A DNA stretch of 63,983 nt, the filler included. It is 12 parts of 12 records of this genome, joined end to end, with 100 filler letters (N's around TTAATTAATTAA, not from the genome) between each part and the next. Parts side by side here need not be neighbours in the genome. Positions count along the whole stretch, not along the records: positions 23,702 to 27,397 come from SRR7504441_10503; 11 more parts are not named here. One strand, written 5' to 3'. Below, one piece after another: positions 7,090 through 54,304 of this stretch. The position numbers were made by a program, and so were the translations under genes. Each line of letters begins with the position of its first letter. The first letter of the stretch is position 1. The notes under the pieces are model-generated. The model was not told where the DNA came from, did not search any database, and was given only the letters and a program-made list of their open reading frames with translations.

Positions 7090-7189
7090 NNNNNNNNNNN
7101 NNNNNNNNNNNNNNNNNNNNNNNNNNNNNNNNNTTAATTAATTAANNNNNNNNNNNNNNNNNNNNNNNNNNNNNNNNNNNNNNNNNNNN
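7090..7189. other. Artificial contig linker (N44-TTAATTAATTAA-N44)
   Basis: 100-nt N run containing a six-frame stop cassette. The identical design occurs 11 times in the window. Confidence 0.98.
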
Positions 7190-12094: not shown

Positions 12095-12194
12095 NNNNNN
12101 NNNNNNNNNNNNNNNNNNNNNNNNNNNNNNNNNNNNNNTTAATTAATTAANNNNNNNNNNNNNNNNNNNNNNNNNNNNNNNNNNNNNNNNNNNN
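12095..12194. other. Artificial contig linker
   Basis: N run with TTAATTAATTAA. Confidence 0.98.
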
Positions 12195-23601: not shown

Positions 23602-23701
23602 NNNNNNNNNNNNNNNNNNNNNNNNNNNNNNNNNNNNNNNNNNNNTTAATTAATTAANNNNNNNNNNNNNNNNNNNNNNNNNNNNNNNNNNNNNNNNNNN
23701 N
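23602..23701. other. Artificial contig linker
   Basis: N run with TTAATTAATTAA. Confidence 0.98.
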
Positions 23702-25767
23702 CCCCCCCGCGACAACGTTGTCAGATCTCTGAATAGCCTACTACCTGGTACCTGGTACTTGGTACTCAAGAGCAGAAATCCCACACAAGTATTTCGATTT
23801 CGAAGCATGGAGCTTTTGGCTGCTGCCAAGGTTTTGACCGACGCGCAGCTGCTCGAGTACCACCTCAGGTTCGCGCTGTGCTCGTCCTCGGCCCAAGTGA
23901 CCGGATCCCGTGCGCTCTGCAACGAGGCTGCCGTGGCCGACTTCTCCCGAAAGTGGCGGGTGCGCCCGGGCTGTGTACCTGCCCCCCGAGTGCTCGGGTT
24001 TCAGGGCAGTCTGGTCCTCGACGGGTACATCGACAAGGCGGAGCTCGGGAGCAACAACACCATCCAGGATCTGCTTGACCGCGGGATCCAGATACCGGCC
24101 CAAGGGCTGCTCATCCACACCGGCCAGATCCCGCAACCCGGCGAGGCATCAGAGTACATCCTGGTGCAGGCCGCTGTCGGCCGGTCATTCTGCACTGAGG
24201 AGGAACCGGCCCGGACAGAGAACGCTGCCTCGCTCATCCCGGAAGGGTGCCCCCGGGGCTGTCGCGGGGAGGAGGCGGGGTAGGTACGACAGTGTCTGTT
24301 TCCCAGGGGATGGGGAGAGGGCGCGGCTGCGACGGATCCTGGAGAAGGAGGGCGAGGAGACGGCGGACGAGCCGGGTGGTGGGGACTGTGGTGGTGGGTG
24401 GTGACGGTGTGGCAGCTGAGGATCTGGTGAAGAGTCAGCCGAACAACTTTAAATTCCTCGTGACTGATCCTCGGCTGGTGCTGGCGGTCTCCTGGGTGTT
24501 GTACGAGCCAACGGACTCGACCCAGCTCCAGGCAACGGACTTGGGGGGCGTCTAATCCGGGGGGCGCAGGGCAGCTCTGGGGACCTTCATGCCGACGAGG
24601 CGTTTAAGCAAGCAATCTCTGCACTCGAGGGAGTTCCAGGCGGCGATAAGGCTATCGAACTGCTCCGGGCGGTGCGCTGGTCTAACGGAATAAATCTAAC
24701 GGACGGACAGCAACACCTGGCGGCCAACCCGCAGTTTGGGATGTCCGAGTACGGCAAGGTGCCGCGTGAGGGGGGATGGGGGTGCTAAGGGGGGGATTAG
24801 CCGTTTGAGTTCTACGACCCGATCCTGCAAGCCCCGGTGCGTGGGCCGGGGGTGTCGTAACTGATTCCAACGGACAGGTCTGTGTCCACGCCAAAATGAT
24901 CGGGTCGCACGCCACAGGAGAAAACGCTACGCACCAGCTGCTGCCAATCGGAGAGGCCTACAACGCAGCTCTGGAGGAGTCTCAGGCCGCCGACCACGAT
25001 TTACGGAAGCGGAAGGAGGCCATTTTGGAGCAGGTGATTTATTGATTAATATGGATTAATACCGGAGCAGCTCGGGCGAGTGGACGGACGAATCGCTGAG
25101 GTAAAGAAGAACTCAACTAGTGTGGAGGAGTCGATCTATCAGCTGCTGCAGGTTAACAGCAGCTTCTAATAAGGCAATCAGCTGTTAACGGCAGGAGGCG
25201 CTGGTGCAGTTGCAGGAGGAGTCGCAGAAGAAGATTCTGATGCTGCTCGCCGAAGAAATGGAGCTCCGGCGGCAGGTTAACAGCAGCTTCTATAAGGAAA
25301 TGAGCTGTTAACGGCAGCTTCGGCTGGTCCAGCAGGAGGAGAGTTTTCTGGCCCAGGAGCAGACCGAGCTGAAGCCGCTATCGTTCCTAACGGCTTGGAA
25401 CCAACATCAGCGGCTTCGGACAGACAAGTTCCACATGGTGTGCCGCCGATCAATGGCTCTAACTGAATTCCAACCGACAGGTCCCGTTCACCCCGAGCAC
25501 TGTGATGGTCAAGGCCGACATCCAGCTGGTAGGACGCGTCCAGGCAACTGCTTCCAACAGAAATTCCGTTACCGCTCGCAGGTGGTTCTCGCCGGCGGAG
25601 CCGATCAGTTCTCGACCATTTCGCAGCTGCCGACTGCGGCACAGCCTGTCCAGTCAGCAAGCTCGGCTCTGCCAGACGCTTCTGGCCCGGTGGTGGCGCC
25701 GCCCAGCTCTGCGCCACATCCTGCGGGTGGCACCCCCCGGCTTAAGGGGGGGCAATCGGCGGTGTAG
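23702..25767 (+). CDS. Protist PARP-like/B-box/coiled-coil protein region (5' truncated); probably the 5' half of the RasGAP gene
   Basis: The spliced frame gives ILVQAAVGRSF...IPEGYDSV and EFYDPILQAPVCVHAKMIGSH...THQLLPIGEAY, then a long coiled coil ELRRQL...FLTAWNQH. It has about ten 37-43 nt introns. Confidence 0.65.
25152..25194 (+). mobile_element. Introner-like micro-intron family A, copy 1 (43 nt, 9-bp inverted repeat)
   Basis: gttaacagc...gctgttaac-ggcag; 40 of 43 positions identical to 25276-25317. Removing it restores the coiled-coil frame. Confidence 0.6.
25276..25317 (+). mobile_element. Introner-like micro-intron family A, copy 2 (42 nt)
   Basis: Same inverted repeat as copy 1. 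It contains an in-frame TAA, so it must be spliced for the frame to continue. A cggcag direct repeat lies at the exon end and the intron end. Confidence 0.6.
25438..25480 (+). mobile_element. Introner-like micro-intron family B, forward copy (43 nt)
   Basis: Core 25448-25476 is 28/29 identical to the reverse complement of 25927-25955. Its 3' end is also shared with intron 24837-24877. Confidence 0.55.
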
Positions 25768-25769
25768 GG

Positions 25770-27332
25770 ATGGTGTCGAGTAACGATTTTTGGTCTGAGA
25801 CGTTGCAGCATCGGAGGGAAAGTGCCGGAGTGTTTACTAATTCTCGGTTAACGGATTTCGGGGCCAAGTCAACGGCTGAAACGGAGGAGATGAAGCTGAT
25901 GAAGCTGCTGATGGAGCCGACTCTAGCGGTTGGAATCCAGTTAGAGCCATTGATCAGGGCCATAGGTGGTCAAAGGGCTATGTGCAGTCATTGACATCCA
26001 GGACGCGGACGAGCTGGCCCAGGTGCTGAAATCCGTCTGAATTCATTGATTGTCAACGAAAATCCCAACCGACACCGTTGGGATAGGCGTTTGTGCGGAT
26101 CTTTGAGTGCGAGGGCAACACGATCTCGCTGATTCGGACAGCGATATCTCGCGAGGTGCGGCATTCAACTGTGATTAATTCGTAATTCATATTAATATAT
26201 TGTAGGTGCGTGCAACTGAGACGGCGAATCTGCTGCTCCGCTCAAACTCGATGGCGACGAAGATGATGACGAGTTACTCTCAGATGATTGGGGTGCCATA
26301 CCTAAGGTGGGTGGCCGGTGATGGCGAGAGCTGAGCCGGCGGCAGGTACACGTTGTGCCCGATTGTGGAGCAGGTGCTCAATAGTACTAGTGTATATTGT
26401 TACAGAGTATAGTATGTTAGCGTATAGTGTATCGAGTATAGTATGTTAGCGTATAGTCAGAGGTCCGACTGTGCCGCAGATATGCCGCGAGCCACTCAAG
26501 TACGAGGTGGACGCGACGCGGCTCGGTGGCGATCACAATGTGTCAATCAACTTCAGGAACTTGATCGGGGCCTGCCAAGGTTTGCTTGACACAATCAGGT
26601 CGACCCTCGACAAATGCCCGCCCCCGTTCCGTCACATCTGCAACCATCTGCACACCCAAGTCCAACGCCGATTCCCAGATCGCAGGCACACAGCGATCGG
26701 TGGCTTCATCTTCCTACGGTACACGGCTAACTGACGCGGCTAACAGACTTTTCAGGTTTTTCTGCCCAGCGCTGGTGTCTCCGGACTCGTTTGGGTTGAT
26801 GGACACGGCGCCGTCTCGTGAGGCAGTCAACTGTTAGTAATCAATAATTGATATCAATATTGCAGGCGCGGCACGTGCTGACGTTGATTGCCAAGACGAT
26901 GGTCAACATGGCCAACGGAATCCCGTTTGGGACCAAGGAGCCGGCGATGAAAGAGATGAACGAATTTATTCTGCACAATCTGAACAGAGTTTCGGACTTT
27001 TTTGACGAATTAGCTACAATTCCAGTCGACCAAATTGAGCTCAGCCAGCAGACCAGCATCGCGGAGGAGGCCCGGACTTCCTGCCTGGCCACGGTCCAAC
27101 GGCACCTCAAGCGGCACCAGGAGCGGCTGCGGGAGATGCTCCGGAAGGAGGCCGCGCAGGGCGGGAGCCAGCTGTCGCTGCACGAGTTTGACGCTGCGCT
27201 GTCGCAGGTGCTTAATAGTGTTTAGTGTGTAGAGTATAGTATAGAGCCAGCTGTGGCTGGCTGAGTTTGACGCTGTGGCAGCCGGATCTTGCGGCCTCGG
27301 GGAGCGTGTTCAGCCCGAGCAGAATCTACTGA
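25770..27332 (+). CDS. RasGAP domain (neurofibromin/GAP1-like), multi-exon
   Basis: The spliced product contains LLRSNSMATKMM (arginine finger), YEVD, GGFIFLRFFCPALVSP, LTLIAKTMVNMAN and FGTKEPAMKEMNEFI. Confidence 0.92.
25929..25965 (+). mobile_element. Introner-like micro-intron family B, inverted copy (37-nt GT-AG intron in RasGAP)
   Basis: Removing it joins EPTLA to VVKGLCAVIDIQDADELAQ in the RasGAP frame. The sequence is the reverse complement of the 25438 intron core. Confidence 0.55.
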
Positions 27333-27397
27333 GCGGTGCAACGGCTGCCACTAGGCTGCCACCGTATTATAATATAGTTGTTATTAACAGTATTATT

Positions 27398-27497
27398 NNN
27401 NNNNNNNNNNNNNNNNNNNNNNNNNNNNNNNNNNNNNNNNNTTAATTAATTAANNNNNNNNNNNNNNNNNNNNNNNNNNNNNNNNNNNNNNNNNNNN
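27398..27497. other. Artificial contig linker
   Basis: N run with TTAATTAATTAA. Confidence 0.98.
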
Positions 27498-27569: not shown

Positions 27570-30500
27570 TCAATCAGCTGAAGGTGGGTTGAAAAGCCCA
27601 CGACCAAAGTACTCAGAGACCACCGAGAAGCCATCACCCTCCGACTCGAGCTGATGGAAGAACTGCTCATGGTGCTCCACACTCTTCTCTAGCTTGTGCC
27701 GCCGCTCCATCACCTTGCGGTTAGCATCAGCACATAGCGAGCACTCCAGCTCGTTGTCAATGACACACTCCTGTCGAGCCAGGCTGAGGGAACTTTAGGC
27801 GTGGCATCGTCCACCTGGTGGAAAGAGTGACCACAAAGAAAGTGCACAGCTGGCAAGTCGAGCTTGGCTGAGCACGCAGAGCATGAGGTGTCCGAGAACA
27901 CCTTGAGCGTGGCTCGATACGAGCAGCACGGCAGGTTGCACCTTAGCCTGGGTCTGCAGCTTGTGAATGTCATGTCTCATCCGCTGTGTCTCGGCTGAAA
28001 ACGTGGCTAAACCAAAGCCAGGAGGGCAAAGGCACCGCGGAGCTCGTTGATGATAGTTTGGTCCTCTTCGATCAGGTTCCGTTCCTCCTGCAGATGCCTG
28101 GTGATGTAGTCCTTCACGACCGCCAGAGGCGTCTTATCATTCTGTGATAGGATCTGGACGAGCAACAGCGGCGGCAGCAGCCGCTCTCGCTCGATATTGT
28201 TGAGCACGTCCATAATCCAACGATGACAGTCCTCCCGCTCATCCTTGAGAGCAAAATAAGAGAGCACCTGTCATGTCATTTAGCCCAGATGGGACCGACT
28301 TGGGCTGCCTGAACCCATAGGTTGGGGTCAATCCTTCCAAATTTTTTGCATGCAGCCATGATTGCCGGGTACTCGTTGCTCTCCATGTGGTGCTGCCGGC
28401 CAGTGAGGCCCAAAGCCGTCTGCCCGGCTGACCTGAACTATCTCAGTGTAGAGCTTGAGCTTCTCATACAAGAAGAGCACTCCAGGCTTGAAGTCAAACG
28501 TCTGGCCTCAGTCAGCACCAACCCAGCCCGGTGCTCGCACCTGCACCAAGCACAGTGCGTGGTCGTCATCATACTTGGCTGCCGGGTTTTGGAGCAGAGT
28601 CAGTGCTGCTTCGTGGTTTTTATCCCTGATGAGCTCCTCTTGCTTGCGTGCATTCTCCATTGCCTCCGCATCCTTCTCAAGTGCCGACTTCTCAATATCC
28701 TCCGCTGGGCAGGCATCAGCGCCACCACAGTCTTAGCGGCCACCTGGGCAGCCTTCCTCAATCCCGGCTTCGCTGTGCTTGGCATCATGCTTCTCCATAT
28801 CTGCCTGCCACTCAGCCCCACGCGTCGAGCCTGGCACGCACCGCTGACTGTGAGCACACCCACAGGCTCGAGCGCATGCTTGTCCTTCTCCTTACTGCTC
28901 ACCAGATCATGGTCACGCAGGTATCTGTGCCCCAGTCAGTCCACCCAGCCTCAGCTTGGGGCTACAGTTCGAGCAGTGTATTGTACACGATCGGGTCGCA
29001 GTCCGGATTGTGCCGGATGATGTGCTCCAGAAAGCTCTGCAGTTCAATAGGATGGTCCACGAATATGTGGATAAAGTCCTGTGGGCAGCTCCGCTGCTCG
29101 ACTGCCGAGCTCACTGCCGACGGCTTGGCCTCGTCGACTTCCTCGGACACTGCGCCGCGCGCCGCTGTGCTCCCACTCAGCTTGCTCGAGTCTTCAACAG
29201 AGTTCTGCAAGGCCAGTGGGCTGGCTGCGGAGCTGGGAGCTTACCATTGGCTTGTAGTCTGTGCAGAGCTCCATCAAGAACTTGGTGGTGATCTCTGGCG
29301 CCTCATGCATCAGCAGCTTGCCATACTTTTTCATGTTCTTGTCGGCTTGATTGAAACTAAGCCGGCGAATGTACTCGAGGCCCTGACAGCCCAGAGTCAA
29401 CCACCCGACAAAAGCTGGCGGATGCCTTGTGATAGTTTGCCATGTCCTCTATCTGCATCTTGAGATACCAATTGTGCTGCTTGTACTTCTTGGCCAGCGA
29501 GGAGGCATAGTTGTGGTAGTTTGCTTGCCGGCACACCCGGATCGCTGCCCGCTCATCAAACCGAGCTGCCCAGGGTCAAGCGACCTGTCTCGACATCGAA
29601 TTCCTGGCAGTCGTCGTTCACAAACTTCTTGAGCTTGCTGTCGTCCTTGAGCTTGGTGTAGCAGTTGAGCAGCAGCGTGGTGTGATCTGGGTTGGCCCGT
29701 TTGACTTCGTGAAGCTTCTCAAGAAAGTCAGTCAAGTTCTTGATCCGCTGCGCATCCAAATACTTCCGGATCACATACGACGGCTCAATCCGCTCCACAA
29801 TCTGCCGCCGGATATGGCTCGCCAGGCTAGTGCAGGGGCGCGGCCACCTTGATGTACTGTTCCATCGCGCCTTTGAAGTCTCTTTTGACAGAGTACAGGT
29901 GGTCGCCATATTTGAGATGGATGTCGAACCGGTGAGACGCGTCAAACTGCTTGCTGTCCTCCGCCAGCTTGAGCGCCACAGTATAGAAACCCTGCCGAAG
30001 GCTCACTCGCCGCCGCTCGGTTGGTTGGCCTTCTTGTAGAGCATTTCCAGCTTGGTCTGTACGTCCTTCTCGGTCAGCTGAAGCATCTTTCGATCGGCGG
30101 TTAGCACGAATATCTCGGACCACTCTGAGACAATCTGTGTGACCTTGCCTGCCCGGGCTGTCAGCCATTGCCCACTCCGGCCTATTTGCCTGTGAGAGTG
30201 AGGGAATACGCTACAAACTTGTTCCTAACCTACATTCGGATCAGAGCCAGGCGCGCGGGCCCGGCACGTCATAGATGTTCAGATGGTCGTCGTCGCCCGT
30301 GTTCTGCACCTCGACCAGGTAATTCTTAAACCTGCCAACCCCTCAGCCCAGCGCTGTGCTCTGCCCATCACCAAAACAGAAGCTTCCGCTCGCCCTCGAA
30401 CGCGTAACAGCCCCGCCGGCCTGCTGGTGGCTCAGCGCCGGCGGGCCCCGGCCACACACCGTCCGGTCCGATTTCGAACACGCCGTCGGCTCTCCCTATG

Positions 30501-31263
30501 AACATGATCCTATCCCAACTCATCACCGCACATCGGTGCTGACATCCTGCGCCCGAGCTCACTCGCTTATCTTAGCACAGCCAGCACCGTGCGGGTGCAG
30601 GTCCTCGCAGACCGGCGGGCCGCGGGCCATCAGGTGGTGCGCCTTCACGCTGTTGGTGGTCGCGACCAGCAGCGTGTGGGCGGCGTCCGCTACGGCCTCA
30701 CTACAATATCTGCACCGCGACTCAGCCTCGCCAGTCGACTTCCACACCCGATCCCCGTGACTGGAGCTGGCCCGTGCTGCAGCTCGAACGGCTTGATCGC
30801 CCCGCGCTCCCTCAGGAAATCGCCTCGGTACATCAGAACCACCCCATTCTCCAGACCGACCGCGATGCACGTCAGGTCGTCGGTCGCCGAGAAGCAAGTC
30901 ACACTCACGTTCACTTTGTCGTTCGAGTCGCGCACCGGCAGCACCTGCCGCCGGGCTCGAGTGCCCAGCCCACCGACCGGTCGAGCACCTTCTGGCACAG
31001 CGGCGAGCCCTCCCGGTTCACCTGGGGCCGCTCGGCTGTGGCCTGTGGGGCGAGGGCTGGGCACCTTGTCTAGCTTCCATATCTTGATCTGGAACCGCTT
31101 CTCCGGGCCGTCGTCCCCGATCGAGATCATCACTTTCTGCGACTCGATCCGCTGCAGATGCGAGACGAACTTATTGTGGGCGTAAAACTTGCTGTACACT
31201 GAGAAGTTCCTCTTTACGAACGAGATCCAGCCCTCCTTGTCGCCGAAGATCAGAAACCCGCCG
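27570..31263 (-). CDS. VPS11: Vacuolar protein sorting 11 (HOPS/CORVET subunit), 5' truncated, intron-dense
   Basis: Motifs IKIWKLDK, YGDHLYS, EPSYVIRKYLDAQRIKNLTDFLEKLH and HTTLLLNCYTKLKD; RING motif CSAC...LDLPAVHFLCGHSFHQ; C-terminal DGFSVVSEYFGRG. Confidence 0.95.
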
Positions 31264-33777: not shown

Positions 33778-34309
33778 TCACGCCCGCTCGTTTAACGCGT
33801 GCCGCCAGTGCAGTTCGTTGCTGTCCAGGCGCAAGTGTCAGACCTGTTCGCAAGCCTGAGTGTCAGACCTGCAGCTGTTCGCCTGCATGTTGGTCCGGTA
33901 TTGGTCCGGCATGCAGGCTGCAGTCCGCAGAGCACTCGAGCACTGTACCTGTATAGAGACGGCCTAGAAGAGCAACCAGTCCCATCCGACAGCCTGGAAG
34001 AGCAACCAGCGTCGTCATCTGACGGCGCCTCCAGCTCCTGAAACTCAGCCGCTGTAAAAAGGCCCAGTGTAGGCCCATGTGTAGGCCCAGTGTAGGCCGA
34101 GTGCGCCCACTACCCAGCGTACGCCCAGCGCCCAATGGCCCTCCTAAGCCTCCTATACTACGGTCTCAGTTGCAAGTAGACGCGGCACAACGAAACACAA
34201 ACAAAGTGTAACATTAAGTTATTAGTAGCGTTGGTTGAATTCATTCAAATAACCTGGCCGGTTCATAAGTTGAGATTTGAATTCAAAAGAGAAATTTTGA
34301 ACAGTGAAA

Positions 34310-50569: not shown

Positions 50570-53500
50570 GGCCGAGCCGTAGAATCTGTGGCTGAGATCG
50601 GCCGGTGCAGCATGCGGACGATCGATCTCGGGACGAGCAAGAAGCAGTTCCCGGCCAAGGGGATCCTGCAGGCGGTTGGGTTCAGAGATACGCTCGCCCG
50701 GATGGTCTACGACCGCCTCTTCATGTGGATCATCGAACAGTGCCCAACTGAATCTAACAGAATCTAACGGATCCACAGGTGCTCTCAGCAGCTGCAGACG
50801 GGGGCCAATCTCAGGGGAGACGTTTTCCTGGGAGTTTTGGACATTTTCGGGTTTGAGTTCTACGAAAACCACCAGCTTCGGCCCAAGGACATGCAGGCAT
50901 GCGGGACTGGGGAGGCGTTGGCGATGGGTTTGTGAATGCAGGTTGTGAACGGACTTGATCAGCTGAACATCAACATTTGCAACGAAATGCTCCAACAGCA
51001 GGTCCCACCAGAGTTTCTAATCTAGGACCGACTGGCCGCAGTTTGTTCAAGTGATTTTTGGGCTCGAAAAGTACAGCTACGACGTCCAGAACGTTAAGTT
51101 CAACTTCGAGGGCTACGCCGACAACAAGGTCCTCACCTAGCACAGCACGCTCAGCAGATTACAGGTCGCTTGCGACTTCCTCTCATCCAACAAAGGCCCG
51201 CTGCTGGTGGCCCTCCGAGAACCGGCCAAGAAGCGCAAGACCGACAAGGCCGGAGACGAGTCTTTCCTGGAGGCGCTCAAGCGAACGGTGCCCGCACAGC
51301 GAGAGCGTGTTACTAGCGACGGTGTCAGGTCAAGTCCGAGAAGCAGTTCAACGGACAAGACGACAGCAAGCGGAAGAACCACCTTGCGGTGCTCTAATCG
51401 GACCACAGACCGGCTGAGCGCGGGCAGGTATACTTGGACTTTGACACGTTGCGGGGCCGGCGGGCGTTCAATGGATTGGATGGCGGGGCTTATGGCAACC
51501 GCGAGATTGACGGCAAGGTCGCCCCGGGGCTGCTTATGGGCTGTATGATGCGCCTGCAGGTGAGTGACAAGGAAGTGAAGGACATCAACGAGTCGTTCGT
51601 GGAGCGAGGCGCCGGAAAGTGCCCGGTGACATGCGTGAATCCCAGCCGTTTGACTGGCCGGGCAGTCATTTGGGATCCGCCACTACGCGGCCGAGGTTGC
51701 TTACGACTGCCGAGGTAACTGACAGCGGAAGCCCCAAACCTGACCGGCTGCTGGGCAGGCTGGTGCGAGAAGGATAAGGACAACCCAACAGACGAGATGG
51801 CAATTTGCCTGCAGGCGCTGTTATCTGCTGGCATGGCTGAGTCTGCTGGCTGCAGCACTCGGGTGACAGCCTCTTCCTTTCAAAGATCTTCTCCGGCGGA
51901 GCTTCGGCCGACGCGCCCGGGGTGACTGCGGCGTTCTGCGGCTCGCTGCACAGCTTGATCGACACGCTGAGCGCCACCGATATGAACTTTGTCCGTTGCA
52001 TCAAGGCGAGCAACCCTCTGGCGCCTCGGATCTTCCAATCGGCGCTCGTGCTCAAGCAGCTCAAGTGAGGCTATAAATAAACTTCTCTGTGCTCAGAGCG
52101 GGGCAGGTACACTGGCATGCTCGACACTCTCAAGATCCGCACGTTTGGGTTCCCGATCCAGAAATCCTACCAGGTCGACTGGCGCGTGACAGTGTTAAGA
52201 CAGTAACTGCAGGACTTCGTCGACTGGGCCAAGGTGCTCTGTCCGGATATACCCAAGGAGCCGCTCGACGCCGCCACCGAGGGGATGGTCAGTCACATGG
52301 GCTCCGCCTACTGCGCCCAGGTCCGTCACACCTTCCTAATCGGGCAATCGGGCCCAACAAGGCCCGTCACACCTTCCTAATCGGGCGACGACCGCAGGTG
52401 TTTGGAGAGCTGCCCCAGTCCGACCAATTCTTCAAGAAAACTGTCGAGGGCGGGCAGCAGGTGCCGCGTTGAATCCCAACGGCTGTGACACGGGCTCAGG
52501 ATAAGTGCGCGATCGTGCAAGGCAAACCGGCCAACCCTGCCAAGACCGCCCCGGTGCGCCGACCTAGCCTGGCAGCATCCTCACTGGGTGGCAGCTGGTC
52601 ATGATGCGTGACTGGTTCTTCCGCGGGCTTGACAAGAAGCGCATGCTGCTCCTCCGGTCTTAACACTGATTAAGCCTGGACTGACGGGCTGTGCCAGCGA
52701 GTACATGGACGTGGCGCAGGCCGCAGTCAAGATGGCTGTTCGCACTTACCTCTGGTATGGGGTCAAGCAGAAAGGCTGCAGGATTCTTGGCCCAATGCTC
52801 CGGTGATCGCTCGACCCATTACAGTCTTGACTGGCGGCGGTCAGCGGTGCGTTGGTCACAGAAGAATATCTGAACAGCAAGTGGCGCTTCCTCGGGAAGA
52901 ACGCACGCACCCAGCTGGTGCTGCTGATCCGCGCCCAGATCGCTCGGAAGCAGTACCAAGTCGAACGGGTGAAGAATCCCCAACGGGCTTAACGGACACT
53001 AACGGACTCTCAGGTTAAATTCTTTGAGGCGTCCAACCGGCAGCTCGTAGTCGGTTTGATCCACGCGACTGTGCAGCGCCAGATGTGCGCCCCGGATTAA
53101 TCAGTGTTAAGGCGGATTGTCGAAGGTACTACGAAGCCAAGCTTCGATGGGCGGACATGCTAGTTCGAGAAAAGGAGATCGCTGCGCTCCAACAGCAGGA
53201 CAAGTATGCTCGCCAGCTCAACGCCGAGCGCGAGGAGGAGGAGATGGCTGCAATGGATGTGACCAATCCCCAGCTGTTTCGACTGACCGAATCTGGCACA
53301 GGAGCAACAGCTGATGCAGAAGGAAGAGGCGTACGTGCATGCTCTGGTCGACGCCCGGTGAGCGGGTCGGTTAGGATTGTGGCTTATTAGCGGCAGATTC
53401 TTCGAGGAGATGCAGATGCGGAAGCAGAAGGAAATTGACCTTTGTGAGGCTAAATACCGAGTGAGTTGGCTGGTCGAAGCTGTCTAGTGCTCGCATTATA

Positions 53501-54304
53501 GTCGTCTAGCGGCTGTCTCCGTGTGTATATCATATGCAGTGGCATGTAGCGGTGACCGCGGCTGGGGTTGTTGCAGGAGGCCCAAGTAGAAATCGATCGG
53601 ATGCAGAAGCAACAGGACGACCTCGACGAGCTCGACGAGCTCTTCGACACCCAGAACGGTCACCTGCCCAGAAGCCCCAACCGCCCATCGTTTGCAGGCA
53701 AGCAGCTGCTGGCGTTTATGAAGCAAGTGCTCGCCGACAAGGAGCGCAAGTGGCAGGAGACTTGGGCCAGCCAATTCGGATGGGCAGTCCGGACCTACCA
53801 GGCACATTCGCTTAATACAACACTGTGTAACCGGGGTCTCAGCTCGAAAACCGAGATGACGTCATGAAAGAGCACCCGTCTCTGCCGCCTCGCCCGCGCG
53901 GGGCCGATGATAGCAAGCAGGAGGTCCGGGCCTGGCGCGAGTACTTGTTCGGGGAGCAGGCGGCGGTCCAGGTTAACTCGATCTGCCCGATTAGGAAGTG
54001 TTAAGCTATGTAACTGCAGATGGAGGCGCTCGACTTGTACGAGGAGCGAGCTAACGAGGACCTGAAGATCCTCAAGGAGCAAGCCCATTCGTGGGAGCCT
54101 ACGTCCCCAGAGTCCCCAGTCCGGTCGGAGCCGGTCCCGCTCGAGCCCGAGTCCCCGATGGGAGCCGAATCTCGTCGATTTTTGAGCGTTGCGATGGACT
54201 GCAGCGTGGAGGTTGAGGCGATGGAGCCGGCCGTGCGGGCGGCTCTCAAGCGATGCATCGCCAAGCTGATCAAGGTCAACACGAGCAAGGTGGCGCTCGG
54301 ATGA
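50570..54304 (+). CDS. Divergent myosin heavy chain (motor C-terminal half, neck, coiled-coil tail), 5' truncated, about 20 micro-introns
   Basis: The spliced frame gives RDTLARMVYDRLF, GVLDIFGFE (switch II), QLNINICNEMLQQ, FGIRHYAAEVAY, FVRCIK and QLKYTGMLDTLKIRTFGFP. Confidence 0.92.

Follow-up and report, generated by a model that had tools for sequence, protein, structure and literature searches.

Two near-identical hairpin introns in a RasGAP-domain gene of an uncultured marine protist point to a probable intron duplication within one gene

Recent intron gains with a recognisable donor copy are rare, and they constitute the main material on how introns arise. Same-gene duplications (SGD) of near-identical introns, among them a non-segmental type, were described in fungi and C. 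elegans (Collemare et al. 2013, PMC3609843). Introners were reported from algae, dinoflagellates and other aquatic protists (Gozashti et al. 2022, PMC9860276; Roy et al., 10.1101/2020.10.14.339549); according to these authors a family comprises at least four introns that lie in unrelated genes, and copy numbers range from 5 to over 2000. For the (stw)introns of Hypoxylaceae, duplication was proposed to be a by-product of double-strand-break repair (PMC8469720). Here, we describe two consecutive introns, i07 and i08, for which the putative parent and daughter are ~95% identical while the exons are not duplicated. The locus lies in a window of 63,983 nucleotides (64 kb), which is the whole stretch of DNA that was analysed. 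The source organism is an uncultured marine protist and a probable rhizarian. Coordinates of all features are compiled in Table 1.

Table 1 Host gene, hairpin introns and further related introns, with positions along the window
Feature	Start	End	Strand	Description
Host gene	23807	27332	+	20 exons and 19 introns; 877 aa; N-terminal domain, coiled coil and RasGAP domain
Exon 7	25071	25151	+	81 nt, LGRVDGRIAEVKKNSTSVEESIYQLLQ; upstream of i07
Intron i07, hairpin copy 1	25152	25194	+	43 nt, GT..AG, phase 0
5′ inverted-repeat arm, copy 1	25152	25160	+	GTTAACAGC, donor inside
3′ inverted-repeat arm, copy 1	25181	25189	+	GCTGTTAAC, holds TTAAC branch-like motif, then GGCAG
Exon 8	25195	25275	+	81 nt, EALVQLQEESQKKILMLLAEEMELRRQ; between i07 and i08; 85% identity to relative
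Intron i08, hairpin copy 2	25276	25317	+	42 nt, GT..AG, phase 0
5′ inverted-repeat arm, copy 2	25276	25284	+	
3′ inverted-repeat arm, copy 2	25304	25312	+	
Exon 9	25318	25437	+	120 nt; downstream of i08
Intron i09	25438	25480	+	27-36-nt core recurring reverse-complemented in i12
Intron i12	25929	25965	+	37 nt; nearly all reverse complement of i09 core
Intron i14	26156	26205	+	related to i18; 79% over 43 nt
Intron i18	26823	26865	+	43 nt, GC..AG; related to i14; spliced in RNA contig

The gene model with 19 introns yields a single open frame of 877 aa. PF00616 was precomputed on the relatives P0001-P0003, and the host protein shares 58% identity with P0003 (721 aa) over 754 alignment columns; for P0001 the identity is 84%. 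The contig of P0003, either cDNA or intronless genomic DNA, measures 2679 nt. Colinearity with P0003 was taken from tblastn and blastp; the relative is gap-free at the i07 junction (..ESIYQLLQ/EALVQ..) as well as at the i08 junction (..MELRRL/LRDCQ.., the slash marking the intron position). Retention of i07 would shift the frame, and retention of i08 would break it, with an in-frame TAA inside. From the frame, the model and the colinearity with P0003 we infer that both are spliced; they are very probably real introns, and the model confirms that both are in phase 0. RNA contigs from two runs (at least 99%) confirm three of the 19 modelled introns (26719-26755, 26823-26865 and 27208-27281). The read evidence comes from four marine runs (two RNA, two DNA), whose coverage leaves out 24446-25313; 24 marine runs contain 0-11% of the contig's words, and no same-species transcript matched the exon immediately upstream.

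Short introns are the rule in this gene, 14 of 19 having lengths of 37-43 nt, and published introner medians range from 30 to 654 nt (PMC9860276), so the original prediction of an unusually small element is not supported. The introns here share a mostly GTG donor, a TAAC or CTGAC branch-like motif and a CAG acceptor, and upstream exons of the host gene most often end in GCAG (5/19).

The alignment of i07 and i08 contains 40 identical positions, two substitutions and a single one-base indel, just as predicted, and the copies are spaced 124 bases apart in the one host gene. All three differences fall within the central 12 nt, whereas the first 16 nt and the last 15 nt are identical. The 16-nt word at the 5′ end occurs exactly twice in the 64-kb window (shuffle mean 0.45); one more match, with two mismatches, overlaps the 3′ end of i08. 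In a self-BLAST of the whole window, the pair was the top short repeat (E 9e-10). The 9-bp inverted repeat that had been noted to start at the donor was found again as perfect arms, GTTAACAGC and GCTGTTAAC, in both copies, compared with at least 6 nt in the criterion for terminal inverted repeats. The 3′ arm stops 5 nt before the acceptor.

The predicted stem consists of 9 bp plus 4 bp, with fold energies of -13.3 kcal/mol for i07 and -13.7 kcal/mol for i08 (z -3.86 and -3.60); only 1/200 shuffles of i07 and 0/200 of i08 folded equally well. This hairpin is particular to the pair; z values of eight further introns in the gene lie between -1.1 and +1.5. The GTTAAC donor is likewise atypical within the host gene. 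The TTAAC in the 3′ arm may function as the branch site, judging from CTAAC, GTAAC and TTAAC motifs in the gene's other introns. An inverted-repeat scan of the window with k=9 was too noisy to be informative in this GC-rich DNA: it gave 28 raw rows, mostly in coding sequence, while shuffles averaged 9.1 and reached at most 18. A look-alike 43-nt hairpin at 33881-33923, upstream of the ATG of the ABCD gene, is only a candidate intron.

Other kinds of structured or unusual introns were considered and rejected. A mirtron or known structured RNA is at odds with the stem of 9 bp plus 4 bp, as Dicer requires about 20 bp, and with an Rfam search of 23702-27397 that gave zero matches at E up to 1. Excision of the tRNA type (bulge-helix-bulge) or IRE1 type was dismissed by inspection, the boundaries being GT..AG and the exon flanks unpaired.

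Whether the flanking exons were duplicated together with the introns is central to the origin of the pair. Upstream, the exons end in ctgcag (i07) and cggcag (i08). Since cggcag is also the 3′ end of each intron, the short repeats of exon end and intron end described in the original prediction are present. The last 9 exon nt are alike at 7/9 positions, including 6/7 directly upstream of the introns. Behind the acceptors, the first 5 exon nt match at 0/5 positions. From 6 nt past each acceptor, GCTGGTGCAGTTGCAGGAGGAG aligns with GCTGGTCCAG and CAGGAGGAG at 9/10 and 9/9 nt across a one-codon gap; this weak exon likeness had also been pointed out before and has an E of 1.4 against the window. At the protein level, LVQ(L)QEES follows both introns. 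The similarity between exons 8 and 9 has a p of 0.04 in this species and of 0.185 in the relative, and exon 8 is matched one-to-one in P0003 with 85% identity. TRF detected no 124-nt period. Thus, the exons flanking i07 and i08 lack a recent duplication; the similarity fills the intron up to the exon-intron boundaries and does not extend into the exons. The in-register exon match starting 6 nt past both acceptors would also fit an old segmental duplication.

Further related introns occur in the same gene. The inverted match between i09 and i12 extends over 36 nt at 89%, with 29 nt at 96.6% (E 3.5e-6), and reached an alignment score of 24.5; i12 is regarded as an intron because of the frame change and the colinearity with P0003 (..EPTLA/VVKGLC..). 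The direct pair i14/i18 scored 18, with a donor displaced by 5 nt between the two, and i07/i08 scored 34. Altogether, six of 342 within-gene pair-orientations reached at least 12.5, compared with a maximum of 12 among 3000 shuffles. Both i09/i12 and i14/i18 occupy separate regions of the RasGAP domain, between clearly non-paralogous exons. In comparisons of the 19 introns with 51 predicted introns of other genes, 0/1938 reached a score of at least 12. Scores of this size were found in 9/644 within-gene vs 2/4186 between-gene comparisons (Fisher p 5e-7), the latter with a top score of 15.5; the between-gene null is rough, because the 51 introns came from a crude predictor that recovers only 6/19 curated introns exactly. 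Over the final 9 nt of the upstream exons, i07/i08 agree at seven positions, i14/i18 at eight and i16/i19 at six, ranking in the top 3.5%, 1.2% and 12% of the 171 pairs, respectively. The weaker pairs i05/i09 and i02/i19 and the inverted pair i09/i12 showed no flank similarity. On these sequence comparisons, similarity among introns of the window is local to the gene, and copying independent of exons appears to occur in the host gene.

We consider it somewhat probable that i07 and i08 arose by a recent, non-segmental same-gene duplication of ordinary ~40-nt spliceosomal introns, probably at the DNA level. One intron would have been copied from the other, or both from a single source, and the copy would have been inserted seamlessly after an exon ending in ..GCAG, 124 nt off in the same gene, leaving the neighbouring exon uncopied. 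Through the 9-bp repeat, the donor GUUAAC would pair with the branch-like UUAAC that closely precedes the acceptor; an RNA hairpin could then close and draw the exon ends together. As for the mechanism of the copying, we infer the repair of a break templated on a nearby intron-bearing stretch and guided by short flanking similarity. Copying at the DNA level and guided by flanks is suggested because one pair is inverted, the best direct pairs have similar exon ends and the similarity is confined to the gene. The case would belong to a known kind of intron gain and is not a proven mobile introner family. A broader reading, which we put forward only tentatively, is that in this protist ~40-nt introns multiply locally within their own genes through DNA-level copy-and-paste in either orientation and guided by exon ends, for instance by templated break repair with a neighbour intron as filler. 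As part of the same tentative reading, this would be a mode of gain apart from dispersed introner transposition and from reverse splicing, with the hairpin pair as its most recent outcome.

The original prediction saw in the pair a possible recent gain by introner-like elements. In this case, i07 and i08 would each have inserted independently, as members of a dispersed introner or MITE-like family of non-autonomous DNA transposons, with the 9-bp terminal inverted repeat carrying the donor, a 4-5-bp target-site duplication (TSD; GGCAG) supplying the acceptor AG, and symmetric ends that splice either way. The layout agrees with this in several respects: the perfect terminal repeat begins at the donor, a perfect 5-nt GGCAG adjoins both arms of copy 2 in a TSD-like manner, the minus strand of copy 1 plus flank also reads GT..TTAAC..CAG (44 nt), and another intron pair of the gene is present in both orientations. 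Moreover, DNA-type introners are reported to make introns in either orientation (bioRxiv 10.1101/2020.10.14.339549), with family medians down to 30 nt and an enrichment in aquatic protists (PMC9860276). We nevertheless judge this origin unlikely, as the 64-kb window contains just two copies, which are 124 nt apart in a single gene, and none of the 1938 comparisons with predicted introns of other genes indicated relatives. Random insertion rarely places two copies in a 3.5-kb gene, and several families with 2-3 copies each in one gene are still less expected. Nor is a locus-specific TSD signal evident, because the left flank of copy 1 is TGCAG vs GGCAG on its right and the right flanks are common to both copies, lying within the identical 3′ 15 nt; any TSD is ambiguous because GCAG ends 5/19 upstream exons. 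Scans for the pattern GTTAACAGCAGC-N12-28-GCTGTTAAC returned 8 metagenome-, 7 genome- and 2 viral-contig loci, all unrelated hairpins with differing loops and contexts, the named ones bacterial; these scans are uninformative on copy number because the source locus itself is missing from the matches. What stands of the introner proposal is that the introns are very probably real, share a recent common origin apart from their exons and bear a true terminal inverted repeat, whereas neither a family nor an unambiguous TSD was found in the 64-kb window. The outcome that had been named as speaking against an introner occurred in one part, since the window holds two copies only, and not in the other, since the exon alignment does not show a tandem duplication of exon+intron.

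That second part leads to an old tandem duplication of a 124-nt intron+exon unit, whose exons diverged under selection while gene conversion or selection on hairpin and splice signals kept the introns alike. It would account for the in-register flanks (7/9 nt upstream; 9/10 and 9/9 downstream from +6), for the LVQ(L)QEES motif (p 0.04), for the 81-nt length common to exons 7 and 8, and for the clustering of all three differences in the central 12 nt, which by simple arithmetic has a chance of ~0.02. We hold it to be very improbable: the first exon nt match at 0/5, no such period was reported by TRF, an E of 1.4 is at chance level, and the equivalent exons of the relative lack significant similarity (p 0.185). 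Conversion would also have to persist on a 43-nt tract and halt at its edges, and the gene's other related introns lie between RasGAP exons that are clearly non-paralogous. Identity that begins near the donor and stops exactly at the acceptor, in the same orientation and phase 0, behind CAG in both cases and seamless relative to P0003, is what transposition at the RNA level would leave, with an excised intron reverse-spliced at a second CAG of the same pre-mRNA, reverse-transcribed and recombined into the gene; within-transcript transposition was offered for about half of the fungal same-gene duplications (PMC3609843). This route is improbable here, as it is unable to produce the inverted pair i09/i12 and predicts neither that the best pairs lie behind similar exon ends nor the 5-nt donor shift of i14 vs i18. 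Finally, short introns with common motifs (GTG donor, TAAC or CTGAC, CAG) could come to resemble each other by convergence on splice signals alone. We give virtually no credence to such a coincidence, given a score of 34 vs maxima of 12 in the shuffles and 15.5 between genes, and a GTTAAC donor that is atypical for the gene.

Local duplication of i07/i08 remains our preferred reading, and the further related pairs of the same gene, including the inverted one, are a reason for favouring a DNA-level mechanism. If intron similarity proves gene-local across the genome, this lineage would lend itself naturally to the study of local intron copying, and to testing whether a donor-to-branch hairpin aids or hampers the splicing of minimal introns. 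If many dispersed copies appeared instead, an introner family would be added in a lineage that is probably Rhizaria; in a word search, the main texts of the introner surveys PMC9860276 and PMC12130899 did not mention Rhizaria.

Among the known systems, the pair resembles the introners in its similarity up to the exon-intron boundaries, a terminal inverted repeat that reaches the 6-nt minimum and a possible splice-site-donating TSD (PMC9860276; 10.1101/2020.10.14.339549), as well as in a length within the published medians and a marine host (PMC9860276). It differs from them in having two copies in one gene of the window instead of at least four in unrelated genes (PMC9860276), and by the introner authors' criterion its TSD is ambiguous, consisting of matches common to introns and not specific to the locus (PMC9860276; 10.1101/2020.10.14.339549). 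The introner elements of Amoebophrya are similar in layout: as described by Farhat et al. 2021 (PMC7789003), an inverted repeat of 8-20 nt joins the intron ends (9 nt in i07/i08), direct repeats of 3-5 nt span the exon/intron boundaries (here GCAG/GGCAG), and a predicted hairpin draws the exon ends together. Those elements are mostly non-canonical, although 1-15% of canonical introns share their layout, and they are repeated genome-wide in another lineage (PMC7789003), whereas i07/i08 are GT-AG introns known from one gene only. With the internally symmetrical sister (stw)introns of Hypoxylaceae the pair shares terminal inverted repeats and seamless integration at new sites without flanking duplications; there, however, the repeats measure 45-55 nt in introns of 93-207 nt, compared with 9 bp in 43 nt, and dozens of copies occupy different genes, compared with two here (PMC8469720). 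The closest parallel is the fungal SGD, with near-identical introns of species-normal length in one gene between unduplicated exons (PMC3609843). The definition of SGD calls for no copies in other genes, and within the window none was seen. The locus departs from the fungal cases in that SGD introns are reported to fold no better than ordinary ones (PMC3609843), whereas i07/i08 have a z of about -3.7, and in that several related pairs, one of them inverted, occur in one gene of a probable marine rhizarian.

Two neighbouring introns of the RasGAP gene (copies 1 and 2) form the top-ranked short repeat of the window in a self-comparison over its whole length (E 9e-10). Their sequences are exactly as quoted in the original prediction, a near-identical pair separated by two substitutions and one indel, with copy 2 having one A fewer in the alignment. 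They are identical over the 5′ 16 nt and the 3′ 15 nt, and the three differences are confined to the central 12 nt. The inverted repeat described as starting from the GT donor was likewise found in both copies, which open with GTTAACAGC and carry GCTGTTAAC near the 3′ end, stopping 5 nt ahead of the final AG. The 5′ word of the pair had no other site in the window except a match with two mismatches, overlapping the 3′ end of copy 2. Predicted RNA folds reached −13.3 kcal/mol for copy 1 and −13.7 kcal/mol for copy 2 (z −3.86 and −3.60), and 1 of 200 and 0 of 200 shuffles, respectively, folded equally well. Fold z ranged from −1.1 to +1.5 for eight other introns of the gene; therefore, the hairpin is specific to the pair and not general to the introns of this organism. 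As an AT-rich hairpin with GTTAAC, the pair is atypical compared with the typical predicted introns of the genome, which are 38–41 nt long and GC-rich (65–84%), start with GTG(C) and carry CTGAC/CTGAG about 10–14 nt before CAG. A candidate look-alike, matching the hairpin introns in size and layout, was noted roughly 100 nt ahead of the ATG start of an ABCD transporter gene on the minus strand.

The gene was modelled using as a guide P0003, a 721-aa relative with a RasGAP domain (PF00616) found by querying with the last large exon. The resulting 20 exons and 19 introns give a single 877-aa protein, 58% identical to P0003 across 754 columns. Intron length is 37–43 nt in 14 of the 19 modelled introns, phase 0 strongly predominates (14/19), and the splice ends are GT..AG in 16 and GC..AG in three. 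Eight of the 19 downstream exons open with GT, and many junction pairs read ..G/GT ... AG/GT. Three of the 19 introns were seen spliced out exactly in RNA contigs from two marine runs (at least 99% identity); the coverage of the four RNA and DNA runs compared excludes 24446–25313 and hence both hairpin introns. Retention of copy 1 would cause a frameshift and retention of copy 2 an in-frame TAA, and P0003 reads ..ESIYQLLQEALVQLQEESQKKIMMLTSEEMELRRLLRDCQQAES.., gap-free at both hairpin-intron junctions. On this sequence comparison, neither hairpin stretch has a coding role, whether the P0003 contig is a cDNA or an intronless gene, and we infer that both are spliced.

Coordinates of the RasGAP gene, its introns and other features of the window
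Feature	Position	Details
RasGAP gene model	23807–27332 (+)	in 3.7-kb contig 23702–27397
First exon	23807–24246	encodes ~146 aa
i03	24532–24569	GC..AG, start GCAAC or GCAGTCAAC; G-run; alternative 20-nt GT..AG reading (GTCTAATCC...GCAG) suits frame equally well
i04	24759–24800	G-run
Copy 1 (i07)	25152–25194	43 nt, GTTAACAGCAGCTTCTAATAAGGCAATCAGCTGTTAACGGCAG
Exon 8	25195–25275	27 aa, between the copies
Copy 2 (i08)	25276–25317	42 nt
Exon 9	25318–25437	after copy 2
i09	25438–25480	
GC..AG intron	25544–25581	start GCAAC or GCAGTCAAC
i11	25727–25767	G-run; C6 run able to pair with G7 run
i12	25929–25965	
i14	26156–26205	
Longest intron	26374–26479	106 nt; start GTGCT(C/T)AATAGT and GAGTATAGTAT shared with 27208–27281; exact 24-nt repeat at 26405–26428 and 26434–26457
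Intron	26719–26755	spliced in RNA
i18	26823–26865	GC..AG, start GCAAC or GCAGTCAAC; spliced in RNA
Second-longest intron	27208–27281	74 nt; spliced in RNA
Typical predicted introns	27606–31262 (−), 50588–54298	also in other contigs
Look-alike hairpin	33875–33923	43–44 nt, GCCTGCATG...CATGCAGGC plus short tail ending in AG
Predicted myosin-like-gene introns	52174–52212, 52657–52697, 53972–54019	last one starts GTTAAC
Linkers	7090–7189, 12095–12194, 23602–23701, 27398–27497	N...TTAATTAATTAA...N, six-frame stop; 7 further sites

Exon 8 is 85% identical to its P0003 equivalent and exon 9 is conserved too; the exon order is therefore older than the species split, whereas the introns differ by about 5%. 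In this gene, exons 8 and 9 show marginal similarity (p 0.04), which P0003 lacks (p 0.185). The nucleotide match after both acceptors reaches E 1.4 against the window, where at least six chance matches score equally. Directly behind the acceptors, the two exons agree at 0 of 5 positions, and TRF detected no 124-nt period. These observations exclude a recent tandem duplication of exon plus intron, which the original prediction had set against its own reading. An ancient duplication of this kind, with the introns later homogenised, is a weak rival that draws its main support from the exon match beginning at +6 after both acceptors.

Further introns of the gene are related to each other, with intron-pair scores above the maximum of 12 obtained in 3000 shuffles. 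A 27–36-nt core of i09 recurs inverted in i12 (score 24.5, BLAST E 3.5e-6; 96.6% over 29 nt), thus one sequence works as an intron on either strand. i14 and i18 are 79% alike across 43 nt (score 18), their donors being offset by 5 nt, one GT and one GC, with the GC donor seen in an RNA contig. The stretches of RasGAP domain around them are not paralogous, so introns have been copied in this gene without their exons. Each is preceded by the exon end TCTCG(C/T)GAG, coding ..SRE, and a 7-nt direct repeat, AGGTGCG, flanks i14, spanning both of its junctions. Weaker scores were obtained for i16/i19 (17), i05/i09 (14.5) and i02/i19 (12.5), and the G-run introns i03, i04 and i11 have TAAGGGGGGG in common, in opposite orientation CCCCCCGG(A/C)TTA. 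For i07/i08, i14/i18 and i16/i19, the best pairs in direct orientation, the final 9 exon bases upstream of each intron agree at 7, 8 and 6 positions, respectively, ranking in the top 3.5%, 1.2% and 12% of 171 pairs; i05/i09, i02/i19 and the inverted i09/i12 showed no such match in these bases. The predicted introns of the myosin-like gene, called with a crude predictor, also share segments (AGTGTTAAG..GTAACTGCAG, and CAGTGTTAAGAC as reverse complement).

As the origin of the pair, we favour that one intron was copied to a second site of the RasGAP gene during break repair. Repair may have been templated by the nearby intron-bearing stretch and primed by short similarity of the exon ends. Direct or inverted templated repeats are a known outcome of synthesis-dependent end joining (PMC7407515), and for fungi a break-repair origin of symmetrical introns has been put forward (PMC8469720). 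The same pair would also be expected from a tiny TIR element hopping locally or from reverse splicing; the latter cannot yield an inverted copy such as that of i09/i12, therefore the intron copying in this gene was at least partly DNA-level. The two introns would be spliced as ordinary short introns, with the palindromic GTTAAC possibly having two roles: the donor at the 5′ end, and a branch-like UUAAC within the 3′ arm, at 6 nt from the acceptor G. The predicted stem could hold the exon ends together, yet would have to open for snRNA binding.

The recent creation of introns, as originally predicted, is thus supported in the form of copying. Membership in an introner family found no support within the 64 kb compared, where unrelated genes yielded no copies. 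We compared the 19 curated RasGAP introns with 51 introns of at most 60 nt from other genes, part of 118 predictions by a crude exon-chaining script, which called only 6 of those 19 exactly; longer predictions were dropped as apparent over-chaining. Local-alignment scores of at least 12 were reached by 6/342 comparisons inside the RasGAP gene, 0/1938 between it and other genes, 3/302 inside other genes and 2/2248 between other genes, that is, pooled and with the crude predictor for other genes, 9/644 within genes vs 2/4186 between genes (p 5e-7). Scans of three contig collections for the arm pattern returned unrelated hairpins only, the source locus itself being among the non-returned. The proposed target-site duplication is unconvincing: GGCAG stands on both sides of the arms in copy 2, and TGCAG faces GGCAG in copy 1. 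The 3′ ends of the copies are identical, and GCAG closes 5 of the 19 upstream exons; under the locus-specific match required in PMC9860276, the duplication is ambiguous. Nor is the pair unusually small, as its length is the modal intron length of the gene and the introner families published in PMC9860276 have median lengths of 30–654 nt.

The window joins 12 contigs of about 3–12 kb (3.2–12.4 kb) end to end and is not one molecule, thus genes across a linker are not necessarily genomic neighbours. Other contigs hold long uninterrupted eukaryotic ORFs for a DEAH helicase, an ABCD transporter, a P5A-ATPase and a CCCH/ankyrin protein. With 61% identity, a transcriptome protein bearing the label taxid 136419 (Cercozoa) is the best named relative of the ABCD ORF, and words of the RasGAP contig were found at low share and only in marine metagenomes and metatranscriptomes. 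Based on this single protein and the marine word matches, the host is probably an uncultured marine rhizarian.

The interest of the pair would rise if the full genome confirmed gene-local intron copying in both orientations. The pair fits non-segmental intron duplication within the same gene, a category described in PMC3609843, and is alike in anatomy to the hairpin introners reported for Amoebophrya (PMC7789003) and to DNA-type introners as described.
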